Assembly: GCF_000007225.1 (NCBI RefSeq)
Contig: NC_003364.1
Location: 1,080,001 to 1,112,000, forward strand
Length of the DNA: 32,000 nt
Source of the DNA: Pyrobaculum aerophilum str. IM2
GTDB taxonomy: Archaea; Thermoproteota; Thermoprotei; Thermoproteales; Thermoproteaceae
Direction: 5' to 3'
A program made the position numbers and the translations under genes. Position 1 is the first letter of the stretch. Each line of letters opens with the position of its first letter. Below, in pieces: positions 9,622-28,867 of the stretch. The notes under the pieces are model-generated. The model was not told the DNA's origin, did not search any database, and saw nothing but the letters and a program-made list of their open reading frames with translations.

Positions 9622-9750
9622 CGGCCTTGCGGCCGTCCGAAACCGGTTGATCCTGCCGGACCCGACCGCTATCGGGGTAGGGCTAAGCCATGCGAGTCGC
9701 GCGCCCGGGGGCGCCCGGGAGCGGCGCACGGCTCAGTAACACGTGCCTAA

Positions 9751-10730
<980 letters not shown>

Positions 10731-10873
10731 TGCGGGCAACCGCGACGGGGCTACCCCGAGTGCCGGGCGAAGAGCCCGGCTTTTGCCCGGTCTAAAACGC
10801 CGGGCGAATAAGCGGGGGGCAAGTCTGGTGTCAGCCGCCGCGGTAATACCAGCTCCGCGAGTGGTCGGGGTGT

Positions 10874-10904
<31 letters not shown>

Positions 10905-11048
10905 GGCAAGTCGCTCCTGAAATCCCCGGGCTCAACCCGGGGGCGGGGGGCGATACTGCCGGGCTAGGGGGCGGGAGAGGCCGCCGGTACTCCGGGGGTA
11001 GGGGCGAAATCCGTTAATCCCCGGAGGACCACCAGTGGCGAAAGCGGG

Positions 11049-11088
<40 letters not shown>

Positions 11089-11393
11089 GAGCAAAGGGGA
11101 TTAGATACCCCTGTAGTCCCGGCCGTAAACGATGCGGGCTAGCTGTCGGTCGGGCTTAGGGCCCGGCCGGTGGCGAAGGGAAACCGTTAAGCCCGCCGCC
11201 TGGGGAGTACGGCCGCAAGGCTGAAACTTAAAGGAATTGGCGGGGGGGCACCACAAGGGGTGAAGCTTGCGGCTTAATTGGAGTCAACGCCGGAAACCTC
11301 ACCCGGGGCGACAGCAGGATGAAGGCCAGGCTAACGACCTTGCCGGACGAGCTGAGAGGAGGTGCATGGCCGTCGTCAGCTCGTGCCGTGAGG

Positions 11394-11425
<32 letters not shown>

Positions 11426-11801
11426 CCGCCCCTAGTTGCTACCCCGTCCTTCGGGACGGGGGGCACACTAGGGGGACTGCCGGCGTAAGCCGGAGGAAGG
11501 AGGGGGCCACGGCAGGTCAGTATGCCCCGAAACCCCGGGGCTGCACGCGAGCTGCAATGGCGGGGACAGCGGGATCCGACCCCGAAAGGGGGAGGCAATC
11601 CCGTAAACCCCGCCCCAGTAGGGATCGAGGGTTGCAACTCGCCCTCGTGAACGTGGAATCCCTAGTAACCGCGTGTCACCAACGCGCGGTGAATACGTCC
11701 CTGCCCCTTGCACACACCGCCCGTCGCACCACCCGAGGGAGCCCTCTGCGAGGCCCCTCGCCGAAGAGGTGGGGGGACGAGCAGGGGGCTCCCAAGGGGG
11801 G

Positions 11802-11851
<50 letters not shown>

Positions 11852-11852
11852 A

Positions 11853-11911
11853 CCCGGGGGTGGGTAGTCTAAAGGGCTTCTCCTCGGCCCCGCAAGCCGC
11901 CGCTCCGCACG
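11853..11911 (+). other. 16S-23S spacer carrying the 3' arm of the 16S helix and the 5' arm of the 23S helix (no tRNA)
   Basis: 11853-11888 pairs with leader 9587-9621. 11897-11911 pairs with trailer 14929-14943 (15 bp including one U-G). The spacer is only about 60 nt, too short for a tRNA. Confidence 0.7.
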
Positions 11912-11912
11912 G

Positions 11913-14927
<3,015 letters not shown>

Positions 14928-14928
14928 G

Positions 14929-14976
14929 CGTGCGGGGCGGCGGGCGAAAGGGCCGAGGCGGCGGCGTGGGGGTTTT
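14929..14976 (+). other. pre-rRNA 3' trailer arms (23S helix and outermost leader-trailer helix)
   Basis: 14929-14943 pairs with 11897-11911. 14957-14976 pairs with 9570-9589. Confidence 0.7.
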
Positions 14977-14980
14977 TTCT
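14968..14980 (+). terminator. oligo-T terminator candidate after the rRNA operon
   Basis: GGGGGTTTTTTCT sits directly after the last GC-rich helix arm and is followed by an AT-rich intergenic region. Confidence 0.45.
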
Positions 14981-15289
14981 TAAAGAGTAGGCGTGTCAAA
15001 TTATTGGGAGTTGCGTCCGTCTATCCCAGTAAACGCAGACATTTTTCATAAAAAGCTGATCTTTGTAACTAGCCCTTTTGCCCAGAAGAACGTATATATT
15101 TACCCCTCTTTTGCAAAGGCCTTGCCGGCTGTATTGTTAATAAGGCACGGGCACTACTGTAAACAAGTGTAAATATAGCCTCTAGATGCGCGTGTATTAA
15201 CTAACGCCCACTCTGCGTTGATTAGTACATTCTACAGAGGCGGCTTTTTGTACACTGTTCAACGTATTGTAAATTGTTTTCTTGTAGAT

Positions 15290-18232
15290 ATGCGGGCTTT
15301 GTTGGGCGTTCTCCTCGTCGTGTTCACGGCTTTTGCCTACAACGTCTTCTGGGGCGAGTTTATTCACTGCGATATCGGCACTTGCCCGTATCCTAATCCC
15401 GACGGCAAATTCCTAGAGATCGGCCCTAACTACGCCGTTTTTGACACGCGCGGAGACCCCTCGGCGATGGGGTTTTTCGTATTGGCCGTTGAGTTTAAGA
15501 GACACACGACGGTTACAATCCAGGGCTGGTGGTCTTATGAACTCCCGCGGACTTTGGCTTACGTCGTGTCCGACAAGGGGCTTACGGCTTTTGAGTGCTC
15601 CACAGGCGGGGGGCAGCAGTGTAGCGTCTCCGGCGCGGCGGCCCCCGGCGTTTATTATATCGTATTTGTCGACGCGTGGGCGGCGCAGACAGTTAGAGTG
15701 GAGGCGGACGGCCCGCTCGACCTTATAGACGTCTCGCCTCAGCGCGTTGCTTGCGCCCTCTGGAGGGCCGGCGTCTTGAGGGGACAGCGCATAACATACG
15801 CCTTTAACTGGCCGTCTAGGCCCGGCGCCTCTGTTTCTCAAGATATTGTGGAGGGCTCTTGCGGCCCGCCCGATTTGCAAGAGGCCCTGGCCTTTGCCGC
15901 CGCGGCCGGGCTCAACGCGACGGAGGCCTCCCTCCTCACGCGTCCGCTGGGCTACAACGTGACTGCAGTGGAGAGGAAGTACGGCTCCGCCGTGTTTTAC
16001 CTCCAGCCCGACCTCACTTACGTAGTGCCCCTGGCTCTTGAAGTCCAGTGGCCTAACGCGGGCCGGCTCCTCCTCGTCAACCCGAGCAACGTCTCAGTCA
16101 CGTGGGCCGTGGAGCTACGCCTTTCTAACAAAACGGGGAGCTCCGGCGTTGCCCACGGGTCGAGGCTGTCTTTAACAAACGTCACGCTCCCGCCGCGCTC
16201 TGTCTACGAGCTGTACCTCTACGGCGTTGCCAGAGAGGGGGGCTCTTACGTCTTTTCCTACCGGATTCGGGCGGCGGGTAGTTACAGCTGGAGCAATTAC
16301 GTTTTTTACACAGAGGGCCGGCTTGTGACGCAGAACGGCTCTTTCCTCAACTGGCTTTGGGGTAGGCTGGAGCAGTTCTGGGGCGGCGTGACTGGGGATA
16401 AATGCGCCGAGGCGCGGGGGGCTGGGAGGAGCTGGGCCGCGGAGAGGCTGGGCCTCCAGGGCGTTGTCGCAGAGCTCGACGCGGCCGCGGGCTTTGTGCT
16501 GATGACAACTGGCGTGGGGGAGTTGGCGAAGGCCGCCGGCGGGGCGGCCAAGGCCTCTGAGAAGGCGCTTGAGATTTGGAGGAAGCTCTCCCGCCCCATT
16601 AAGGCCGTCCTCTACCTAGACCTCCTCGCCAACGGCGTGCTCCTGGGCTGGGACGCCTACCAGGAGGCGGCCTCGGGGCAAATCCCCTGGCGGGAGATCG
16701 CAGACGCGGCCCTTATGGCGGGCGGGCCGGTGCTCCAGCGCTCTCGCCTCATGGCCTCCCTCCTGGCCTCTGGCTCCGGCGTCATGCTTTTCCTCGGCGA
16801 GCCTTTCGACGCGGCGCAACAATTCGCCGACGATCTCTACGCCGAGGCTTCTAAATACGGGAATTACTCCCAGTGTTTTATCGACGGGGCCCTCCAAGCC
16901 TTCTCCACTTACGCCCAGGAGGCCACAATAGCGAATTACCTCGGCGTTGTTTCCACTTTCGTCGACTGGTCCAAGCTCGAGCTCAGCCGCCACTGGCTGG
17001 GGTACAGACAAATAGCCGCGCTGTCTGCCTTTGACTATAAAACCCCAGGTCCGATATTTAAATTCGATAAGAGCGGCTATCGGTTTATTGCTGTAAATAA
17101 AGAAAAACTTGGATATGCCTCCAGTGGCAATGTTATTATGTTTGAAATAAGTAGTAAGGACAATAGGCTTTATTCTGTGGCTAGGTGGAATAAGTTTTTA
17201 AGGTGGGTGTCTTGGCTGGCTGTGGAAGAGGGTAAATACGGCGGCGTTGATTATGAACTCAGACTCGCCAGATTTGAATACCAAGAGAGTAGCGGGGCGA
17301 CAAAAACGGCGTTGGCAGCTGTTGTAGTAGATAAAAAGACGGGGGTTCCGCTGTTATTGTCTTATAATGACTATTTCATGTCGCTGGTTGTGGGCAAGGC
17401 TTTACAAGGCGGCGTTATGGGCCGCGTCTATGAGGTAACGCTGGCTGGAGTTAAGGGGCAGGCCAGGGCGTTTACCTTTGACTTTCCTGGGAATATGGAG
17501 AAAGTGGCGTGCGTCAATGCCGCTGGCTGTAGGTGGGAGACCCTTATTAAGTACTTAACAGGCGTCTTAGCGCCTGAGTTGTACAACGCAAGGCCCGAGG
17601 CAGTTGGCATGGAGGTTTTTCTTATAAAAGAGGCGAGAGAGGTGGTAAGCGCTAAGTCTCTGGCAATAGACTGGCTTGAGCCTGGTAGTAAAGGCCTTTT
17701 TCTAGTGCAACAGCCAGGCACGGCTTTTGACGTGCTTGCAATAGATAGAGAGGGGCGTCTTGTAATTGTGGAAGTTAAAAGAAAAGAATATTTGAAAAGA
17801 GAGGAGGATCTCCGCCAGTTGGCAGATAAGATCAGTTACTTACGGCAGCTTGATAGAATAAAGGGCGTTAGTGTGGGCGATGCGCTTTCATATCTAATCG
17901 CGGCTTACAACGGGGCAGGCCCCAGCGGAATAGGGAGCCACGGGGCTTCTAGTACTTTTGTATATGAGCCCGTTCTGCAAGTCTTAAATTGGAAGGGGGA
18001 TAAAACACGGGTTATTTTTTCATTTGTTGTTGTAGATATAGATAATCATAAAGCAGTTGTTTATACGGTGGAGAGGAGGCTGGAGGAGCTGACGTATGAT
18101 TTTATAAAAAACGTTGCAAAAGACGCGTATGACTTATTTGATTATGTTAAAACTGAAGGCGGCGTTGATATACGGGATGTGGTACGCGCTACGGTTGCGC
18201 AATACTCAGGCACTCCGCCGTTTTTAAAATGA
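15290..18232 (+). CDS. large secreted/glycosylated-looking protein with compositionally distinct C-terminal region carrying a NucS/PD-(D/E)xK-like nuclease motif
   Basis: The ORF is open from 15218 (TTG). I prefer the ATG at 15290, which gives a signal-peptide-like MRALLGVLLVVFTAFAYN. Many N-X-S/T sequons are present (NAT, NVT, NVS, NKT, NVT, NGS, NYS). The motif FDVLAIDREGRLVIVEVKRK lies at 17726-17785. The stop overlaps the next start (ATGA). Confidence 0.75.
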   Translation: MRALLGVLLVVFTAFAYNVFWGEFIHCDIGTCPYPNPDGKFLEIGPNYAVFDTRGDPSAMGFFVLAVEFKRHTTVTIQGWWSYELPRTLAYVVSDKGLTAFECSTGGGQQCSVSGAAAPGVYYIVFVDAWAAQTVRVEADGPLDLIDVSPQRVACALWRAGVLRGQRITYAFNWPSRPGASVSQDIVEGSCGPPDLQEALAFAAAAGLNATEASLLTRPLGYNVTAVERKYGSAVFYLQPDLTYVVPLALEVQWPNAGRLLLVNPSNVSVTWAVELRLSNKTGSSGVAHGSRLSLTNVTLPPRSVYELYLYGVAREGGSYVFSYRIRAAGSYSWSNYVFYTEGRLVTQNGSFLNWLWGRLEQFWGGVTGDKCAEARGAGRSWAAERLGLQGVVAELDAAAGFVLMTTGVGELAKAAGGAAKASEKALEIWRKLSRPIKAVLYLDLLANGVLLGWDAYQEAASGQIPWREIADAALMAGGPVLQRSRLMASLLASGSGVMLFLGEPFDAAQQFADDLYAEASKYGNYSQCFIDGALQAFSTYAQEATIANYLGVVSTFVDWSKLELSRHWLGYRQIAALSAFDYKTPGPIFKFDKSGYRFIAVNKEKLGYASSGNVIMFEISSKDNRLYSVARWNKFLRWVSWLAVEEGKYGGVDYELRLARFEYQESSGATKTALAAVVVDKKTGVPLLLSYNDYFMSLVVGKALQGGVMGRVYEVTLAGVKGQARAFTFDFPGNMEKVACVNAAGCRWETLIKYLTGVLAPELYNARPEAVGMEVFLIKEAREVVSAKSLAIDWLEPGSKGLFLVQQPGTAFDVLAIDREGRLVIVEVKRKEYLKREEDLRQLADKISYLRQLDRIKGVSVGDALSYLIAAYNGAGPSGIGSHGASSTFVYEPVLQVLNWKGDKTRVIFSFVVVDIDNHKAVVYTVERRLEELTYDFIKNVAKDAYDLFDYVKTEGGVDIRDVVRATVAQYSGTPPFLK

Positions 18233-19263
18233 TTCCAGACGTCGTTATATGCGTTAGCTTTGAAGAAGAGGGCGGCCGCGTGTCTCTACAGCCCGTAGCT
18301 GGCGTGAGGAGAACTGGCTTTAGATTTGAGCCGAGGGCCGCGGCAAGCGGCGCCTTCATTAAGAGAATAGATGCCGAGGGAGTTGTCTTATTTACAGGCG
18401 GCGATAGTAATCACAGCGTTGTATTTCCACTGCCAGACGGCACTTATTTATTATACGACGAGGCCGGCCCCCCGCCGCTGGTTGACTACCCGTCGCCCCC
18501 CTTGCCGGCTTTAGACGATTTTGGAAACGTGCACTGGACCCGTTTTATCGGCGATATAAGTGCAGAATACAACGATAGGTACTACGCCATATTGCCCGGG
18601 GGCAACACGGCGTTTGTATACGAATGGACAGGCCCTCCCACAGGCTTAAGCATTAGCGAGGGCATAGACTTCTACGCGGCCGTTCTGCTCTCAATTAGAT
18701 ACAAAGACGAGTGTTTACGCGAATATTTAAAGCAACGCACTCTACAATTGACAAATAAAGAGTGCAATCCACGTATACGACAAGTATTATCTGGGCTTGA
18801 CCCCCGCTTCCCCGGCTCCGGCCGCCTCGTTGGCGAGGAGTTCCGCATTGTAGAACCCGACAACGACTATTTGAGGCTTGTGGGGAGAGGCGGCGATGAA
18901 TACATCGCCTGGGATTTCGTGTTGGGAACGCTTGACTCGGGCGAGTGGATTATTATGGCCGACGACGGCCTTTACACTGCCGTGAGAGAGGGCAGTCGCG
19001 TTGTTGTAAAAGAGCCTTACCGCGGCTCTTTAATAGACGTCAGGGGGCCTCCCACGGCTTATAAATACCCCGTCGTCCCAACCCGTACTTTTAAACACGC
19101 AGAGTTGTATGGGGCTAATGTGACTTACGACGCCACGTTGTTAAAATGGCCTTTGAGTGGGTTATTAAAAGAGGTTGCGTTGAGGTTTAATTTTAAAGGC
19201 GTGGTTCACACCAGCGGCTCTTCTGTTATAACATGTGATCTCGGATATGCTGATAGTTTGTGA
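18229..19263 (+). CDS. uncharacterised paralog family member 1 (P1)
   Basis: 344 codons with an ATGA overlap onto the upstream ORF. The C-terminal half (DPRFPGSG...EPDNDYLRL...IAWDFVLGTLDSGEWIIMADDGLY...GSLIDVRGPPTAYKYPVVPTRTFKHAELYGANVTYDATLLKWPL) is shared with the next gene. Confidence 0.75.
   Translation: MIPDVVICVSFEEEGGRVSLQPVAGVRRTGFRFEPRAAASGAFIKRIDAEGVVLFTGGDSNHSVVFPLPDGTYLLYDEAGPPPLVDYPSPPLPALDDFGNVHWTRFIGDISAEYNDRYYAILPGGNTAFVYEWTGPPTGLSISEGIDFYAAVLLSIRYKDECLREYLKQRTLQLTNKECNPRIRQVLSGLDPRFPGSGRLVGEEFRIVEPDNDYLRLVGRGGDEYIAWDFVLGTLDSGEWIIMADDGLYTAVREGSRVVVKEPYRGSLIDVRGPPTAYKYPVVPTRTFKHAELYGANVTYDATLLKWPLSGLLKEVALRFNFKGVVHTSGSSVITCDLGYADSL
18907..19151 (+). repeat. conversion-tract-like repeat, copy in P1
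   Basis: 18907-18975 is identical to 19901-19969 (69/69). 19024-19151 matches 20018-20145 at 127/128. The two tracts are separated by a 48-nt strongly diverged patch. The offset is constant at 994 nt. Confidence 0.85.
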
Positions 19264-20269
19264 AGATATATGTCAGTTTAACGCGGCTGGACTGTTAATA
19301 ACCGGCGTTAGAAGACGGGAAATTGGTTATTTATACGTGACACACTCGGAGATTTTTCCCCCTTTGGCAGTTTTTGAAGTATATTCAGGGGAGAAAAACG
19401 CAGTAGTTGCGGTGATTAAAAGCGGCGGCAATATCTATTTAGCGCAGAGAGCGCCTCCCGGGCCACTCCGTGGGGAGAAGGAATGGAGGGGCTACATACT
19501 ATATGAGTGCAGAAAAGGATGTGAAATAGATGATTATCCAGCCCCGCCTTTACCAATACGCAGATTTGATAAGGTCTTTTTCACAAGGTTTATATCTATT
19601 AGACGCCGCATGAGCATTCAGGGAGGCGAAATTATATGGATCCCCCATGGGGCCGATGTCATGAACTTTGCCTATTACAGAAACCCGGTAGCCACTTTTC
19701 TCGCGATTAGGTACAGGCCTGAATGTAGGCCTAAGGGGCAATATCTGCCTAGTTGTGTTTTCGATCTACCTTTTCGTGATATTCAAAATGACGACCCCCG
19801 CTTCCCCGGTTCCGGCAAACTGACGGGGGAGGAGTTCCGCGTGGTGGAGCCCGACGCAGATTACCTCCGCCTCATCGACCGCGGAGGGGATGAGCATCTT
19901 GCCTGGGATTTCGTGTTGGGAACGCTTGACTCGGGCGAGTGGATTATTATGGCCGACGACGGCCTTTACGTCGCAAAGAGGGATGGGGATAGAGTGGTGG
20001 TGGCCAGTCCCTATTACGGCTCTTTAATAGACGTCAGGGGGCCTCCCACGGCTTATAAATACCCCGTCGTCCCAACCCGTACTTTTAAACACGCAGAGTT
20101 GTATGGGGCTAATGTGACGTACGACGCCACGTTGTTAAAATGGCCGCTAAACGCGCAGAGAGGCGGGGAGTTTAAGCCAGAGCTGGGGGCGCCGATGTAT
20201 TTAAATCTTGATTACTGTCTCTGTCTGAAGTGTAAGACCTACAGGCTGGCGAGATATTTTAATAGTTAA
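19247..20269 (+). CDS. uncharacterised paralog family member 2 (P2), tandem duplicate of P1
   Basis: The ORF is open from the GTG at 19235. The ATG at 19247 (MLIVCEDIC) aligns with the P1 N-terminus (MIPDVVICV). It overlaps the P1 3' end by 17 nt. The C-terminal half is near-identical to P1. Confidence 0.75.
   Translation: MLIVCEDICQFNAAGLLITGVRRREIGYLYVTHSEIFPPLAVFEVYSGEKNAVVAVIKSGGNIYLAQRAPPGPLRGEKEWRGYILYECRKGCEIDDYPAPPLPIRRFDKVFFTRFISIRRRMSIQGGEIIWIPHGADVMNFAYYRNPVATFLAIRYRPECRPKGQYLPSCVFDLPFRDIQNDDPRFPGSGKLTGEEFRVVEPDADYLRLIDRGGDEHLAWDFVLGTLDSGEWIIMADDGLYVAKRDGDRVVVASPYYGSLIDVRGPPTAYKYPVVPTRTFKHAELYGANVTYDATLLKWPLNAQRGGEFKPELGAPMYLNLDYCLCLKCKTYRLARYFNS
19901..20145 (+). repeat. conversion-tract-like repeat, copy in P2
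   Basis: Partner of 18907-19151 (see that entry). Confidence 0.85.
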
Positions 20270-20614: not shown

Positions 20615-21385
20615 TCAACATGTTGGAATAGTTGGCAACTCTCCGTATTTATCGGGAACTGGCCTTGCGCCGCGTTTTAACAACGCCTCAGCCGCCAGCC
20701 CGTCCTCTGCGTAGTGCAGAGGAGTTCTCCCCATATTATCCACGGCGTTTAGATCAGCCCCATATCTAAGGAGTAGCTTTATGCAATCTACATCGTCGGC
20801 GTAGTGTAGCGGAGTTCTGCCGGCCCCGTCTTTGACGTTGACGTCAGGGCCGCGTTTAAGCAATAGCTCTACGCACTGGGCGCAGTTGTGCTCAGAGGCC
20901 ATATGCAATGGGGTCTTGCCGTGGGCATCTCTCGCGTTAGGGTCGACGCCGTATTCGAGGAGGAGTTTTACGAGGCCTGCGTCTCCGGCAACTAAGTGTA
21001 ATAAGCTCTCGCCATGGCTTGCCCCCGGCCTAACTCCGCGGGCGAGCATATACCTCACCGCCTTGTGGCACCCGTTGCGCGCGGCGGTGTACAACGCCTC
21101 TTCTACGCCAACGGCAGACGCAGAGAGGAGTGGAATTACTCCAAATTTGCGCGATTGAGTTGCAATAATAATTGGCGTCTTCCCCTCTCTATCTCTGGCG
21201 TTTGGATCGGCCCCTGCCTTTATTAACAAATCTACAGTTCCCACATCTCCCCTCTCCGCGGCGTAGTAGAGGGGAGTTCTGCCGTAGTCGTCTTGCACGT
21301 CTGGGCTACACCCCTCGTTAAGTAGCCGTGTTAATAACTCCGCCTCCCCTCTCCGCGCCGCATTTAACAAATTGTTGCAATCCAC
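20615..21385 (-). CDS. ankyrin-repeat protein (about 7 repeats)
   Basis: 256 aa with repeated ANK consensus units: GRTPLYYAAERGDVGTVDLLIKAGADPNARD, GKTPLHMASEHNCAQCVELLLKRGPDVNVKD, GRTPLHYADDVDCIKLLLRYGADLNAVD and others. Confidence 0.85.
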   Translation of the reverse strand: MDCNNLLNAARRGEAELLTRLLNEGCSPDVQDDYGRTPLYYAAERGDVGTVDLLIKAGADPNARDREGKTPIIIATQSRKFGVIPLLSASAVGVEEALYTAARNGCHKAVRYMLARGVRPGASHGESLLHLVAGDAGLVKLLLEYGVDPNARDAHGKTPLHMASEHNCAQCVELLLKRGPDVNVKDGAGRTPLHYADDVDCIKLLLRYGADLNAVDNMGRTPLHYAEDGLAAEALLKRGARPVPDKYGELPTIPTC

Positions 21386-22640: not shown

Positions 22641-22701
22641 ACGCCCTCTAACGGTGCTTGTACACAGAATTAAAAATTTAATAATAGTATTATTTTACTT
22701 T

Positions 22702-23301
22702 ATGGAGAAAAGAACTGCTATGATTTTAATGATTGCTGGTGGGGCTTTTTATATAGCTGGAGGAGTGGTCGGAGCGTACGTCATCGCCGTCCTCAAGGGG
22801 GTGGAGATGGGCTTAGTAGGAGGTAGCGAGGAGGAAGTCTGGGCTGCTATTACGCCTGTGATTGCAACAGGTCTTGTGACTGGTTTGTTAATTGTACTAG
22901 GAGGAGTTCTGGTTAATTCTGAGAGTAGGAAAAATAGAGTTATCGGTAGCATTTTGGGTATTGTAATGGCTTTACTTGGCGCAATTAACACTTTTGGAGG
23001 CTTAATTATTGGGATAGTGCTTGCTTTTATTGGGAGCGTTGCCGGGTTGACTTATAAGCAATCTATGAGGGCATCGTTGTCTGCGCCTAGCCATGTCCAG
23101 GACGTTGTCCGCTGGGAAGTTAGGGATGCGCAGAGCAGTCCGGCCCCGCCTCAGTCGCGCCGCCCAGCGTCTAATGAACAGAGCGCCCCCGAGCCGGGTT
23201 GGTACTTATTTCAACACGAGGGGGATCAGCACTATTGGTGTTATTACGACGGAGAGAAGTGGCTTACATGTAGGTGGGCCTCTTCTCAACCATCTGAATA
23301 G
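22702..23301 (+). CDS. small multi-pass membrane protein with cytoplasmic/extracellular tail carrying a GWY...YWxxYDGxxW motif
   Basis: I prefer the ATG at 22702 (MEKRTAMILMIAGGAFYIAGG), preceded by an AT-rich TATA-like stretch at 22668-22684, over the GTG at 22654. There are four hydrophobic helices. The C-terminal PGWYLFQHEGDQHYWCYYDGEKWLT resembles the DUF2510-type GWY/YWDG/W motif by eye. Confidence 0.65.
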   Translation: MEKRTAMILMIAGGAFYIAGGVVGAYVIAVLKGVEMGLVGGSEEEVWAAITPVIATGLVTGLLIVLGGVLVNSESRKNRVIGSILGIVMALLGAINTFGGLIIGIVLAFIGSVAGLTYKQSMRASLSAPSHVQDVVRWEVRDAQSSPAPPQSRRPASNEQSAPEPGWYLFQHEGDQHYWCYYDGEKWLTCRWASSQPSE

Positions 23302-23674: not shown

Positions 23675-24314
23675 GTGGTCCTCTCTCCCGAGGAGAAGAG
23701 GCGTTTTTTAAAAGCGCTGGAGGAGGATCAAGAGTTCAGATACGCGGTGGCGGGGTTGCTGGGCCTCGGCGAGGTGTTGAACGAGTTGAGGCGGTTGAGG
23801 GAGGACTTTAATAACTTCGTACAGAGGAGTGAAAAAAGCCGACGAGAGGCGCTGGAGGCAGAACGAAAGACGCTGGAAACAGAACGAGAAGAAGTGGAAA
23901 GAGAACGAGAAGCGATGGGAAGAGGCCTATAAGCGTTTTGACAACATCGAGAGGAGGCTCTCCAACGTGGAGAGTACGCTGGGGGCTATGGCCGAGAGCC
24001 AGCACTCCCGCTACGTCTGGGAGGACTTACAGGCTGAGATAAGGGCGAGGGGGGAGGCGTTAATGCGCCGTGTTAGAAGTGCAAGGTCTATTTTCGGCCT
24101 AATTTTCACCTCGACGACGTAAACGCGACGGTCTGTCTCGATGAGCAAGTCAATGTCGACGTTGTCAACGGACGTGGGAGCGCTTTTAGCCAAGGCGGAG
24201 GTGGTAAAAAGCGCGTTGCAAAAAGAGGCAGTCCCCGTACTGACGGGGGCTTGGATAGGAGACGACGTGGAGAAATACGCCAGGGGCAAGGGTGTGTTGG
24301 TGTACAGCTACTAA
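23675..24314 (+). pseudogene. coiled-coil + PD-(D/E)xK nuclease-like gene (multi-copy Pyrobaculum-type family), disrupted by an A-run frameshift and an 83-bp internal inversion
   Basis: GTG at 23675, about 20 nt after TTTTTTAAAT. The N-terminus is VVLSPEEKRRFLKALEEDQEFRYAVAGLLGLGE. The frame changes at A6 (23832-23837) into ...ERRWRQNERRWKQNEKKWKENEKRWEE.... The catalytic core VDNVDIDLLIETDRRVYVVEVKIRPKI is encoded on the opposite strand (24087-24169). The C-terminus DVGALLAKAEVV...GVLVYSY* is back on the plus strand and in frame. Confidence 0.75.
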
Positions 24315-24839: not shown

Positions 24840-25259
24840 CTAAGGGTCTAGTAGGCCTCTGGCGTCTAGCTCTTTGTGTAGCTTCATAATTATTTCTGAC
24901 ACATAGGCGTATCTTCTCTCTTCTAACACTTGGCGTATTTTCTCCACGTTGATTTCTCCATATTCGTGGACGATAATGTTTCTAAATCCCACTAGCCTTC
25001 TTAAAGCCTCTCTCTCCTCGCCGCTTAGCAAACCGGCTGAGGCTAGGCTGGCTATACATTTCAGTGGAGTTTCTCCTCTAATGCCCACTACGGCGCATGT
25101 GTGTAATAAGTAGTCTATAATTGACTGGGAGTGTATCTGCAGGGCGTGTAGAACTGCGTAGAGTTCAAACACGTCGTCCCAGTTTACTCCGCGTCTTCTT
25201 ATTTTTTCTAGGAATTCTAAATGCCGTAACACTTCTTCTATTAGCTTATTGTGTAACAC
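24840..25259 (-). CDS. hepT: HepT (DUF86/HEPN) toxin of a HepT-MNT toxin-antitoxin pair
   Basis: 139 aa carrying the Rx4HxY HEPN motif in LVGFRNIIVHEYGEI. It overlaps the upstream MNT gene by 14 nt. Confidence 0.85.
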   Translation of the reverse strand: MLHNKLIEEVLRHLEFLEKIRRRGVNWDDVFELYAVLHALQIHSQSIIDYLLHTCAVVGIRGETPLKCIASLASAGLLSGEEREALRRLVGFRNIIVHEYGEINVEKIRQVLEERRYAYVSEIIMKLHKELDARGLLDP

Positions 25260-25647
25260 GTCTCAGCACGCCATTGACAAACTTTTTTGTAAACTCCACT
25301 TTTTCTCTCATAATTATGTAGTCGTTACACACGTTGATAGCCCTTATCAACACTTCTCTGCCCTTGAGGTCGTTGTAGATTAAAACTCCATTTGCCACCG
25401 CCTGGAGAAAGAGGACGCAGTTAATTTCGTTGACGTCTCCGAAAGCATAGACGTCGGCGGGGAGCCCGGCGACGTTTTCCACGGCCTCCATGGCGTTTAG
25501 CATTACCTCTTCCACGTCTCGGTCTGTGTAAATAACCAAGTCTATATCTCTTGGACTTGCCTTCCACAGCGCGGAGCCGTGTAGAATTACAAGTCTGGCG
25601 CCGACAGCCCCCCAGTCTACTTGTCTCAACTTCTCCACAAGAGACAC
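25246..25647 (-). CDS. mntA: MNT minimal nucleotidyltransferase antitoxin
   Basis: 133 aa carrying the GS...DxD nucleotidyltransferase motif LHGSALWKASPRDIDLVIY. GTG start about 22 nt after a TATA-like GTTTTTTAACC on the minus strand. Confidence 0.85.
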   Translation of the reverse strand: MSLVEKLRQVDWGAVGARLVILHGSALWKASPRDIDLVIYTDRDVEEVMLNAMEAVENVAGLPADVYAFGDVNEINCVLFLQAVANGVLIYNDLKGREVLIRAINVCNDYIIMREKVEFTKKFVNGVLRRVTQ

Positions 25648-28283: not shown

Positions 28284-28369
28284 ATAATATACTTTTGTAT
28301 ATCTGGGGTTCTGCTATTAAGTGCCTTTTTCCTATTCACAGTGTACACTATATTAAGATTTATCCCGGC

Positions 28370-28735
28370 GAGAGGCGCTGGAGGCAGAACGAAAAACGCT
28401 GGGCTGAGGCAAATAGGCGGCTTTCTCGCATTGAGGAGGCGTTGGGAGTAACGGCGGAGGGCTTGTGCTCCCGCTACGTCTGGGAGGACTTGAGGGAGGA
28501 GATTTATACAAAAGGCGAGGCCGTGGTTAAGAGGGCTAGGAGTGCCAAGGTGGATAATGTGGATCTCTTGGTGGAGACAAACCGCCACGTTGACGCCGTC
28601 GAGGTGAAGATTAGGCCTAGGGTTAAGGACGTCGGCGCCCTTCTGGCGAAAGCCGACGTCGTGAGGCACGTCTTTGGCAAAGGCGCTGTCCCGGTTTTAG
28701 CGGGGGCGTGGGTTGGAGACGACGTGGGGGAATAG
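28370..28735 (+). pseudogene. 5'-truncated, 3'-frameshifted second copy of the coiled-coil + PD-(D/E)xK gene
   Basis: Homology to the 23.7-kb copy begins abruptly at GAGAGGCGCTGGAGGCAGAACGAAA (28370, matching 23843). The nuclease core VDNVDLLVETNRHVDAVEVKIRPRV is in the normal orientation. The C-terminal end is 5 nt shorter than in the other copy, which gives a premature TAG at 28733-28735. Confidence 0.55.
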
Positions 28736-28867
28736 GGGGAAGGGAGTGTTGGTGTACAGCTATTAGCGCCCGCGCGGAGTTGTCCATACGGCGCTGGCTG
28801 GCGTTGGGCTCCGAGGGCGGCCTGTTAAAAAGAGGTCGCTGAGAAGCTCGGCGCGGCGCCTTGGGAA

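Follow-up and report, generated by a model that had tools for sequence, protein, structure and literature searches.

A candidate polymorphic-toxin-like island downstream of the rRNA operon of the hyperthermophilic archaeon Pyrobaculum aerophilum

Introduction

Inter-cellular antagonism in archaea is poorly known. This work describes a gene island of the hyperthermophilic crenarchaeon Pyrobaculum aerophilum str. IM2, composed of the large gene PAE1856 (hereafter Big), the small genes P1 and P2 that directly follow it, an ankyrin-repeat gene and a further gene, P3, and weighs whether the island may be a polymorphic toxin system (PTS). The window, i.e. the whole stretch of DNA that was analysed, comprises 32,000 nucleotides (nt) of contig NC_003364.1 (positions 1,080,001 to 1,112,000), and coordinates below refer to the window unless a related locus is named. 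An original prediction, made from the sequence alone, had read positions 15290-20269 as a nuclease-toxin and immunity-like operon.

Related loci were collected through look-ups of encoding contigs, one genome scan and one metagenome scan. The genome scan gave five loci; P. aerophilum and P. calidifontis were not among them. The 48 related loci (L numbers) and the window, 49 loci together, were annotated with hidden Markov models (HMMs) built in this analysis. The C-terminal ~390 amino acids (aa) of Big are referred to as CT.

Gene layout downstream of the rRNA operon

The 16S and 23S rRNA genes (9640-14939) adjoin the upstream side of Big. The rRNA operon ends at 14939, and a conserved upstream region on the forward strand (14951-15289) leads to Big itself (15290-18232, forward strand; AAL63775/Q8ZWC7), which encodes 980 aa. 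The longest open reading frame (ORF), starting from a TTG, covers 15218-18232 (1004 codons), but homologues begin at the ATG at 15290, which is therefore the likely start. P1 (18229-19263; AAL63776, 344 aa) and P2 (19235-20269; AAL63777/WP_128621480, 344 or 340 aa) follow on the same strand. The junction between Big and P1 is an ATGA overlap (...AAAATGATTCC); the overlap of P1 with P2 measures 29 nt, reduced to 17 nt should P2 begin at the ATG at 19247. Both the position directly downstream of the rRNA operon and the translational coupling of the three ORFs, as originally proposed, are thus borne out. Further downstream lie the ankyrin-repeat gene (20615-21385, reverse strand; 256 aa; Pfam Ank, E 8e-47) and P3 (21537-22640, forward strand; AAL63779, 367 aa). 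The window encodes exactly the sequences AAL63775, AAL63776, AAL63777 and AAL63779, P2 being 100% identical to a P. aerophilum protein; the four are annotated as 'hypothetical' or 'conserved within P. aerophilum'.

The 3' end of the 23S rRNA gene adjoins the island in five loci. No integrase, transposase or terminal repeats were found in the island, and a viral or proviral origin was rejected, since the IMG/VR viral contigs contained no relatives of the locus.

The upstream region shares DNA with two related loci. Positions 15065-15190 are 100% identical to L001 1-126 (reverse) and 14951-15061 are 95% identical to L001 5929-6038, so that the L001 contig carries the noncoding stretch between 23S and Big at two separate places. 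Positions 14901-15318 are 97% identical to 3928-4352 of L006, a Pyrobaculum metagenome-assembled genome (MAG), where the stretch precedes a gene of a second family of large proteins, Big2. The first ~10 codons (MRALLGV...) are common to Big and Big2. The noncoding stretch 14951-15190 may be a shared promoter/5' region serving as recombination substrate. The region 14951-15289 probably holds the promoter of a leaderless mRNA, as judged by eye from a TATA-like TTGTAAAT ~25 nt before the ATG.

An N-terminal part with a signal-like start and clustered sequons

Homologues of Big are rare: a search of 5.8 billion proteins yielded only seven, each from Pyrobaculum or Thermoproteus. The protein opens with a signal-peptide-like N-terminus (15290-15337, forward strand; aa 1-16, MRALLGVLLVVFTAFA) with a possible cleavage between AFA and Y. 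The segment aa 3-21 is the only one in Big with a Kyte-Doolittle (KD) 19-mer hydropathy above 1.5 (KD 2.05), and equivalent N-termini are present in the homologues P0004, WP30 and that of L001. PAE1856 is thus probably exported. A pilin-type (class III) signal, weighed by eye, was dismissed, as the R-A-L-L-G start differs among homologues.

The signal-like segment is followed by a conserved, GC-rich and putatively extracellular domain (15338-16429, forward strand; aa 17-380). Big contains seven N-X-S/T sequons, six of which fall inside 141 aa of this domain (aa 209-349). None of 5000 shuffled sequences showed clustering as tight, and the shuffles held 3.1 sequons in total on average. Sequons invariant across homologues include N223-V-T, N280-K-T/S and N349-G-S. 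The signal-like start and the seven or more sequons on which the original prediction had built are therefore both present.

Next comes a conserved Ala/Gly-rich region (16430-16855, forward strand; aa 381-522) with three moderately hydrophobic stretches, which appear as 17-mer hydropathy peaks at aa ~389-405, 437-453 and 487-503. Alanine and glycine make up 16.8% and 9.4% of aa 400-590. A transmembrane topology for this region was discarded, since no segment reaches the usual threshold; a role in membrane interaction or translocation is conceivable. The N-terminal part ends in a conserved junction (16856-17059, forward strand; aa 523-590, YGNYSQCFIDGALQAFSTYAQE ... WLGYRQIAALSAFDYKTPGPI), a candidate recombination arm.

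Base composition changes sharply across this junction, at codons ~540-590: GC content is 0.626 (0.76 at third codon positions, GC3) in 15290-16918 versus 0.46 (GC3 0.455) in 17060-18232. The abrupt break reported in the original prediction is real, but its reading of the C-terminal ~400 codons as the foreign part needs amending. The flanking genome has a GC content of 0.52-0.58, so both halves are compositionally deviant; the 5' part departs at least as much as the 3' part and is the GC-rich outlier.

Pfam gave no match anywhere in the first 800 aa of Big and no known trafficking domain, and a profile search with the Big alignment (A1) against PDB sequences returned nothing significant.

The C-terminal module carries a probable nuclease core

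The CT consists of a variable β-rich subdomain (17060-17509, forward strand; aa ~591-740; pI 9.5) and a core resembling PD-(D/E)xK nucleases with C-terminal helices (17534-18229, forward strand; aa 749-980). The AlphaFold2 (AF2) model of aa 590-980 (pLDDT 84, pTM 0.87) displays long β-hairpins and the β-rich subdomain at aa ~600-740, after which the core is modelled as a helix (749-765), strands 767-776, 779-787, 801-807, 813-819 and 824-831, and helices 838-856 and 862-874. The D...D-x(n)-E-x-K-R motif of the original prediction was located in FDVLAIDREGRLVIVEVKRK at aa 813-832. Of the putative catalytic residues, D814 (17729-17731) opens strand 813-819 in the model, E829 (17774-17776) and K831 (17780-17782) form the E-x-K on the next hairpin strand, 824-831, and E775 (17612-17614) lies upstream. 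The model thus places D...(D/E)xK on adjacent strands with flanking helices and an upstream acidic residue, as expected of a PD-(D/E)xK enzyme.

This E..D..ExK tetrad is invariant in alignments of eight (A4) and 14 (A5) CTs that share ~20-35% identity; counted over the comparisons, its residues are invariant in 14-22 diverse CTs. Of 24 distinct CT sequences, all intact ones have it. Only orphan fragments deviate, through D to G, loss of the D, K to E or truncation. This pattern speaks for catalysis being under selection in the expressed gene, with decay of the reserve copies.

Similarity to known nucleases is faint but consistent in direction. The best Pfam match is NucS_C, whose E is 0.007 when the whole protein is searched and 9.5e-4 when the core alone is used (19.6 bits versus a cutoff of 24). 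Also below threshold are NCBIfam NucS (E 0.0026) and EndoMS 5gke (E 0.03). The CT profile searched against the PDB aligned VRR-NUC 4qbn (E 0.058) and NucS 2vld (E 0.44) on the catalytic D/ExK. In the Foldseek top lists for the CT model, Exo5, AdnAB, Cas4, exonuclease VIII and PD-(D/E)XK proteins were enriched, with no significant match. None of these similarities to a known PD-(D/E)xK member is statistically significant, yet all weak sequence and structure matches point to this superfamily, and a PD-(D/E)xK nuclease fold of the core is probable. For the profile and structure searches that the original prediction had proposed, the outcome is thus a compatible topology (pLDDT 84) with no match past threshold; its lean towards PD-(D/E)xK nucleases stands, while the narrower NucS/DUF91 label draws on sub-threshold matches. 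Big shares with NucS/EndoMS only a partial, sub-threshold match to the C-terminal domain, with no match to the N-terminal domain and a different architecture. Tox-REase families gave no match in the Pfam scans at E ≤ 1, assuming that those models are in the Pfam-A copy used. The CT is not a NucS orthologue, nor does it belong to any toxin family described so far. The β-rich subdomain might, speculatively, contribute to target entry or recognition.

The C-terminal module is exchanged between loci

Comparison of Big with its homologues reveals a mosaic. Between loci, identity is 57-100% in the N-terminal part and 21-37% in the C-terminal ~390 aa. The P. calidifontis copy is 96-100% identical to the window protein over aa 64-400, 38-54% over aa 401-590 and 24-33% over aa 591-980. 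The protein of L003, a Pyrobaculum MAG, is 100% identical up to aa ~540 and 21-28% thereafter, and the other homologues show 51-80% identity in the N-terminal part and 21-44% in the last 390 residues. Between alleles, the β-rich subdomain (aa ~591-740) shares 24-37% identity. In DNA, L003 matches the window with 96.4% identity as far as 17032 and cannot be aligned beyond; this end of identity coincides with the GC3 break from 0.76 to 0.455. L003 then continues with an alternative CT, a different downstream gene and housekeeping genes, so one carrier has been joined to different cassettes of CT and downstream gene. The orphan CTs P0042 (L007) and L010 3708-4985 begin inside the conserved junction segment. 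A conserved body and a hypervariable CT are thus separated by a junction where alleles recombine, as in a PTS. The orthologous-locus comparison suggested in the original prediction, illustrated by L003 and the identity profiles, accordingly found CT and downstream genes swapped as a cassette behind a conserved N-terminal part. A search with the CT only found just two further homologues.

L001, a MAG binned as Thermofilaceae, contains protein and DNA stretches identical or near-identical to P. aerophilum, from either a very recent between-family transfer or a mis-binned contig. For P. calidifontis, the older annotation P0081 (1045 aa) has an N-terminus that resembles an out-of-frame reading of the signal/N-terminal region, and the newer model P0003 starts at aa ~64; the gene may be frameshifted, i.e. 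a recently acquired copy that is already decaying.

P1, P2 and P3 form a small family with a conserved acidic core

P1 and P2 share 25-35% identity over aa 1-200 versus 78-82% over aa 201-320, with 8% in the tail, in line with the original description of tandem paralogs with variable N-terminal and conserved C-terminal halves. At the DNA level, 18799-19151 and 19793-20145 match at 82%. The conserved core comprises ~95 residues and is acidic (pI 4.4-4.8; P1 4.6, P2 4.4); it spans aa 191-285 in P1 (18799-19083), aa 187-281 in P2 (19793-20077) and aa 179-276 in P3 (22071-22364). P3 is recognized by the P-core HMM with an E of 2e-27 and represents a divergent P subgroup. P1-P3 and the ankyrin protein are devoid of hydrophobic segments and have the appearance of cytoplasmic proteins.

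An exhaustive profile search of 1.84 billion representatives retrieved only 45 proteins of the P family, which accordingly does not merge into a large known superfamily. Pfam searches of P1-P3 and 35 aligned family members at E ≤ 1 found no SUKH/SMI1-KNR4 and no other meaningful match, and ten distant P members searched at E ≤ 0.1 gave no SUKH/SMI1_KNR4 either. AF2 models P2 as a predominantly β protein whose small core resembles a barrel (pLDDT 61.5 overall, 66-91 in the core). Foldseek of this model against the PDB gave no significant match, nor did the P-family profile (A3) against PDB sequences, and hints of an OB/SH3-like barrel are weak. The original suggestion that the P core resembles the SUKH/SMI1-KNR4 immunity domain was consequently abandoned: profile matches to that domain are lacking, the family is tiny and the low-confidence model is mostly β.

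Orphan cassettes and co-variation of CT with its downstream gene

Several loci carry CTs without a carrier, accompanied by partner genes. Such orphan CT/partner cassettes occur in L001, L007, L010, L014, L020 and L048. L010 is the most elaborate: the main CT and a 561-aa double-core P protein are followed by a 425-aa orphan CT that starts in the junction with two P genes, by a 159-aa CT fragment with a P1-like gene and then by a 248-aa degenerate CT. L001 carries a 241-aa orphan CT overlapping a P gene, more P genes and two ankyrin genes; its overlapping P1-like and P2-like genes (262-1266 and 1250-2266) stand in the same order as in the window. In L007, the orphan CT P0042 starts just before the junction motif and precedes a P1-like gene. 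The intergenic regions of the window contain no CT or Big2 remnants, so that its orphans are of partner type only (the ankyrin gene and P3).

Coupling to the downstream gene is consistent across loci, with an (A/G)TGA overlap at all CT-to-P junctions checked (10/10) and a TAGTG overlap at all CT-to-ankyrin junctions checked (5/5). In a Mantel test over 11 cassettes of four CT types, the more alike two CTs are, the more alike are the N-terminal 170 residues of the P proteins encoded after them (r = 0.85, p = 1e-4). The CT type of the window precedes a MIPxVVxC-type P1 in 3/3 cassettes (the window, L007 and L010 6809-8337), the WP30 type precedes the same two P types in 2/2, and the type 'RPDLLGVLPxGRLLWVEVKNLDRL' precedes a ~550-aa double-core P protein in 3/4. 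P units are often doubled, in the form of overlapping gene pairs or of a single protein with two fused cores. The downstream gene therefore co-varies with the CT as a cognate gene would, a result that speaks to linkage only.

One CT type, 'SRADILGVGSGGVILLGEVKSIN', is followed in 6/6 loci by an ankyrin-repeat protein of 800-1140 aa, with no P gene. Of the 27 related loci that measure at least 4.9 kb, about 19 contain ankyrin genes, and large ankyrin proteins form a real, recurrent third component. The ankyrin gene of the window is on the strand opposite to the CT and two genes away, and is 90-96% identical in DNA to the ankyrin gene at the end of L001; its product probably belongs to the same island, as a partner that stands alone or is orphaned. 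The original prediction had pointed to it as an immunity-type neighbour; its repeats are evident, and the predicted link to the system gains more from the six loci than had been supposed.

An additional arrangement was observed in the MAG proteins P0050, P0052 and P0053, corresponding to window ~18160-18310, where the CT (...DYVKTEGG) reads straight into P1 (GRTGFRFEPRAAASG...), skipping ~22 residues at the end of the CT and ~27 at the beginning of P1. These may represent a natural CT-P1 fusion/deletion allele or an assembly artefact. If natural, the in-frame fusion would be a weak hint at a functional link of the Rosetta-stone type.

Big2 and the single P3 gene of the window

Big2 is a second family of large signal-bearing proteins of 800-1050 aa. 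Its relation to PAE1856 is distant and limited to an N-terminal stretch of ~100-150 aa; the C-terminus is different and has no Pfam match. Members are found at L006 4873-7317, L022 377-3208, L037 2-2839, L041 789-3923, L043 1-2679 and L044 1339-4491. Downstream of Big2 stand an ankyrin gene and/or two P3-like genes, the latter pairs being present in L006, L022, L037, L041, L043 and L044. Orphan fragments of the Big2 CT also precede P3-like pairs. L006 and L022 share the order Big2, two P3-like genes and a PAE1856 orthologue, and in L006 the 23S 3' end lies just upstream of Big2. Strain IM2 is without Big2 and has kept a single P3. Judged by these arrangements, the ankyrin gene and P3 of the window look like orphan partner genes.

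Interpretation as a probable polymorphic-toxin-like conflict island

The architecture, mosaicism, orphan arrays, coupling, co-variation of CT and partner, and conservation of the catalytic motif are direct observations. We read PAE1856-P1-P2 with the ankyrin gene and P3 as a polymorphic-toxin-like conflict island, found so far in Pyrobaculum, Thermoproteus and related hot-spring contigs only, and put the probability of this reading at about 60%. The central proposal of the original prediction, a carrier with a swappable CT and cognate small genes organized as in a PTS, has thereby gained in plausibility through the mosaics, L003, the orphan arrays, the co-variation and the tetrad.

Under the conflict-island reading, PAE1856 would be exported via Sec through its N-terminal signal and its N-terminal domain would be N-glycosylated, as the signal-like segment and conserved sequon cluster suggest. 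The last ~390 residues would constitute a swappable module, composed of the variable β-rich subdomain and a nuclease of PD-(D/E)xK type, its fold probable and its activity predicted. The nuclease could degrade nucleic acid in a recipient cell, entered, speculatively, with the help of the Ala/Gly-rich region and the variable β subdomain. The producer would be protected by the cytoplasmic products of the translationally coupled downstream genes, P1/P2 here and a giant ankyrin protein for another CT type, which would bind and neutralise the nuclease. In a plausible design, the variable N-terminal half of P recognizes its own CT and the conserved acidic β-core blocks the active site or the DNA-binding face. 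New specificities would arise by homologous recombination, for which mosaicism and orphan arrays are observed, with the Big junction (aa ~523-590) as the left arm and possibly the conserved P core as the right arm; other strains, as well as orphan CT+P cassettes, could act as donors. The ankyrin gene and P3 of the window, in view of their partners in other loci, might be protective orphans against toxin types that the strain does not make.

Several points weigh against this interpretation. Export, nuclease activity, toxicity and neutralisation are predicted functions. No homology to Rhs/YD, filamentous haemagglutinin (FHA), PAAR, LXG or MafB was found, the locus contains no secretion or injection machinery, and no route can be given by which the protein would pass the archaeal S-layer and membrane. 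No profile or structure match to the CT is significant (NucS_C at 19.6 bits versus 24, best Foldseek E 0.03). P is unusual for an immunity protein, with ~340 aa, a core that is far more conserved than its flanks and a frequent occurrence in twos, and could equally be an adaptor, chaperone or regulator. The co-variation of CT and P may come from physical linkage alone; several of the compared cassettes are closely related, so that it demonstrates co-inheritance, not interaction, and in one case, the orphan cassette of L001, a type-B CT stands with another P type. Finally, many related loci are MAGs or short metagenome contigs, with uncertain taxonomic labels and some uncertain joins.

The rival explanations account for fewer features than a polymorphic toxin does. 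The strongest, which we consider improbable, is an anti-virus or abortive-infection system, in which a glycosylated surface sensor anchored by the Ala/Gly-rich stretches would carry a cytoplasmic nuclease effector that P or ankyrin proteins restrain as long as no virus has been sensed. With their moderate hydrophobicity, the three stretches at aa ~389-503 could insert into or span a membrane, and the P and ankyrin proteins have a cytoplasmic look, but only the N-terminus passes the standard transmembrane threshold, and the candidate stretches contain or are flanked by charged residues. Weak PADLOC matches lean the same way (PDC-S11 over a 20-aa motif, E 0.002; the ankyrin gene to PDC-M72A and an Ankyrin model), yet they span just the generic D..ExK motif or ankyrin repeats. 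A HEPN/MNT-like pair, recognized by eye, and other island-like genes lie nearby. Orphan arrays of CT and partner and allele swapping at the junction are a signature of inter-strain conflict and would be needless for a self-contained sensor and effector.

Slightly less probable still is a non-toxic polymorphic surface protein for self/non-self recognition or adhesion, comparable to VARTIG, with the CT as recognition surface and the P proteins as its partners. The organization, a large protein, here probably exported, with a hypervariable C-terminus and variable downstream genes, is that of VARTIG (PMC8416519); no delivery machinery was found, and the toxin function is itself a prediction. What speaks for an enzyme instead is that the four putative catalytic residues are invariant at ~20-35% CT identity and decayed only in orphans, which argues for enzymatic selection. 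Moreover, the P and ankyrin proteins have no export signals and so could not meet an extracellular recognition domain, and Pfam detected no Ig-like or other E-set domain.

A selfish recombining cassette, whose nuclease would act on the DNA of its own cell for gene conversion or homing with P as cofactor and the carrier as incidental, would suit the near-identical DNA across species or bins (96-100% over parts of the locus), the rRNA-operon-adjacent location in five loci and the strongly mosaic structure. We regard it as very unlikely: intact genes always fuse the nuclease behind a signal-bearing, sequon-rich carrier, which is hard to square with an intracellular DNA target, the island is without integrase, transposase or terminal repeat, and no viral-contig relatives were found. 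Least likely of all is an ordinary secreted nuclease that scavenges extracellular DNA next to unrelated paralogs, which fits the signal-like N-terminus and nuclease-like C-terminus and leaves allele swapping, orphan cassettes, translational coupling and co-variation with cytoplasmic downstream proteins unexplained.

Relation to known systems

The candidate polymorphic toxin of Pyrobaculum shares its organization with bacterial PTS such as CdiA-CT/CdiI of contact-dependent inhibition (CDI), Rhs-CT/RhsI and MafB (PMC3482391): a conserved body, a hypervariable CT past a conserved junction and a coupled cognate gene, together with orphan arrays of CT and partner that retain a junction piece, recombination and horizontal exchange. 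It also resembles them in a CT of restriction-endonuclease (REase) fold, predicted here, and in ankyrin-repeat partners; REase-fold toxins and ankyrin immunity proteins are established PTS classes (PMC3482391). Unlike bacterial PTS, the locus is without FHA, YD/Rhs, PAAR, LXG, VENN or a secretion apparatus. The P partner is new and large (~340 aa), with a strongly conserved acidic core and often two genes or a fused double core, and the crenarchaeal host, a hyperthermophile, has an S-layer but neither murein nor an outer membrane. Searches of Pfam, NCBIfam and PADLOC found no FHA, YD, PAAR, VENN or pre-toxin domain, and there were none in the recurrent neighbour ORFs, so the island does not belong to the CDI, Rhs or type VI secretion system (T6SS) families. 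Matches to NCBIfam, PHROGs and PADLOC were motif-level or repeat-level only.

At the level of the CT, the E / D / ExK signature at the C-terminus of a probably secreted multidomain protein recalls the Tox-REase families 1-10; in contrast to these, the weak sequence matches are to archaeal NucS/EndoMS and VRR-NUC only, and an extra β-rich subdomain of ~150 aa is present. The strand-hairpin motif hD-hLGhD..G.hhhhEhK aligns with D160, E174 and K176 of NucS/EndoMS (DUF91), but the match remains below the gathering threshold, the N-terminal DNA-binding domain of NucS is missing and the context is a probably exported polymorphic protein.

Among archaeal systems, VARTIG of the Thermococcales (PMC8416519) is likewise a lineage-specific locus with a large protein, exported there and probably here, a recombining hypervariable C-terminus and variable downstream genes; it has been noted as PTS-like, with a function that is unknown (PMC8416519). 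VARTIG is built on Ig domains without a recognisable enzymatic toxin, whereas a catalytic tetrad and other downstream families are found here, and with no Ig-type Pfam match in Big and a different lineage, the island is not a VARTIG locus. Haloarchaeal T6SS/contractile injection system (CIS) pairs (PMC11566945) are similar as cases of archaeal inter-cellular antagonism in which toxin genes are followed by immunity genes. Those toxins ride a CIS and have been tested experimentally as toxin/immunity pairs (PMC11566945), whereas no CIS genes occur in this locus or the related loci examined. The statement in the original prediction that archaeal PTS are only computationally predicted is hence dated. 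PTS were reported in only a few archaeal genomes and regarded there as bacterial imports (PMC3482391).

No homology to the trafficking, pre-toxin or immunity families of bacterial PTS or of VARTIG is detectable; what is shared with PTS is a generic nuclease fold, predicted for the CT, and ankyrin repeats. It is possible, though we hold this with considerable doubt, that the island is an archaeon-specific nuclease-toxin system that evolved independently of the bacterial ones, with a Sec-exported glycoprotein carrier that enters neighbouring cells without machinery, a new class of modular P immunity proteins (allele specificity from the variable N-terminal half, active-site blocking by the acidic β-core), giant ankyrin alternatives and a P core that doubles as recombination arm. 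The literature searched holds no mention of PAE1856-1861 or of Pyrobaculum/Thermoproteales with polymorphic or ankyrin toxins; a listing in the 2019 archaeal PTS survey is possible.

The locus displays the full evolutionary signature of a PTS in hyperthermophilic Thermoproteales, built from protein families without known relatives. If it is a toxin system, it would offer a testable model of strain competition in hot springs and a new family of heat-stable nuclease and inhibitor pairs, pose a new delivery problem (a protein toxin crossing an S-layer and an archaeal membrane) and explain the unusual abundance of ankyrin-repeat genes in Pyrobaculum-type genomes. An independent archaeal system, if real, would open a first way to study killing by contact or diffusion among hyperthermophilic Crenarchaeota.

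Other features of the window and related loci

A family of ~370 aa (MVEVVVGAVKSGGRY...), absent from the window, recurs in ten related loci on the strand opposite to the Big genes: L002 8650-9759, L041 16854-17969 and L042 13880-14995 (all reverse strand) and seven other loci. The member in L002 lies just upstream of a Big gene.

Directly after P3, positions 22654-23301 encode a 215-aa protein with approximately four hydrophobic helices and a weak match to DUF6114 (E 0.0013, below the cutoff); it is not among the ORF families common to at least three related loci. Two overlapping small ORFs at 24840-25647 (reverse strand) resemble, by eye, a toxin-antitoxin pair of a HEPN protein (DUF86, ...RNIIVHEY...) and a minimal nucleotidyltransferase (...GS...DIDLVIY...). 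Three repeated segments of 38-92 nt with 77-95% identity, one of them inverted, are shared by 23839-24313 and 28365-28765; they fall in intergenic or small-ORF regions and may be a small repeat element.

Within the rRNA operon, the small subunit (SSU) rRNA match at 9640-11852 spans 2213 nt versus the 1478 positions of the model, which implies an insertion of ~700 nt, presumably the known P. aerophilum 16S rRNA intron. Near the start of the window, at 81-140, Rfam identifies the small RNA Pyrobac-1 with 72.8 bits.

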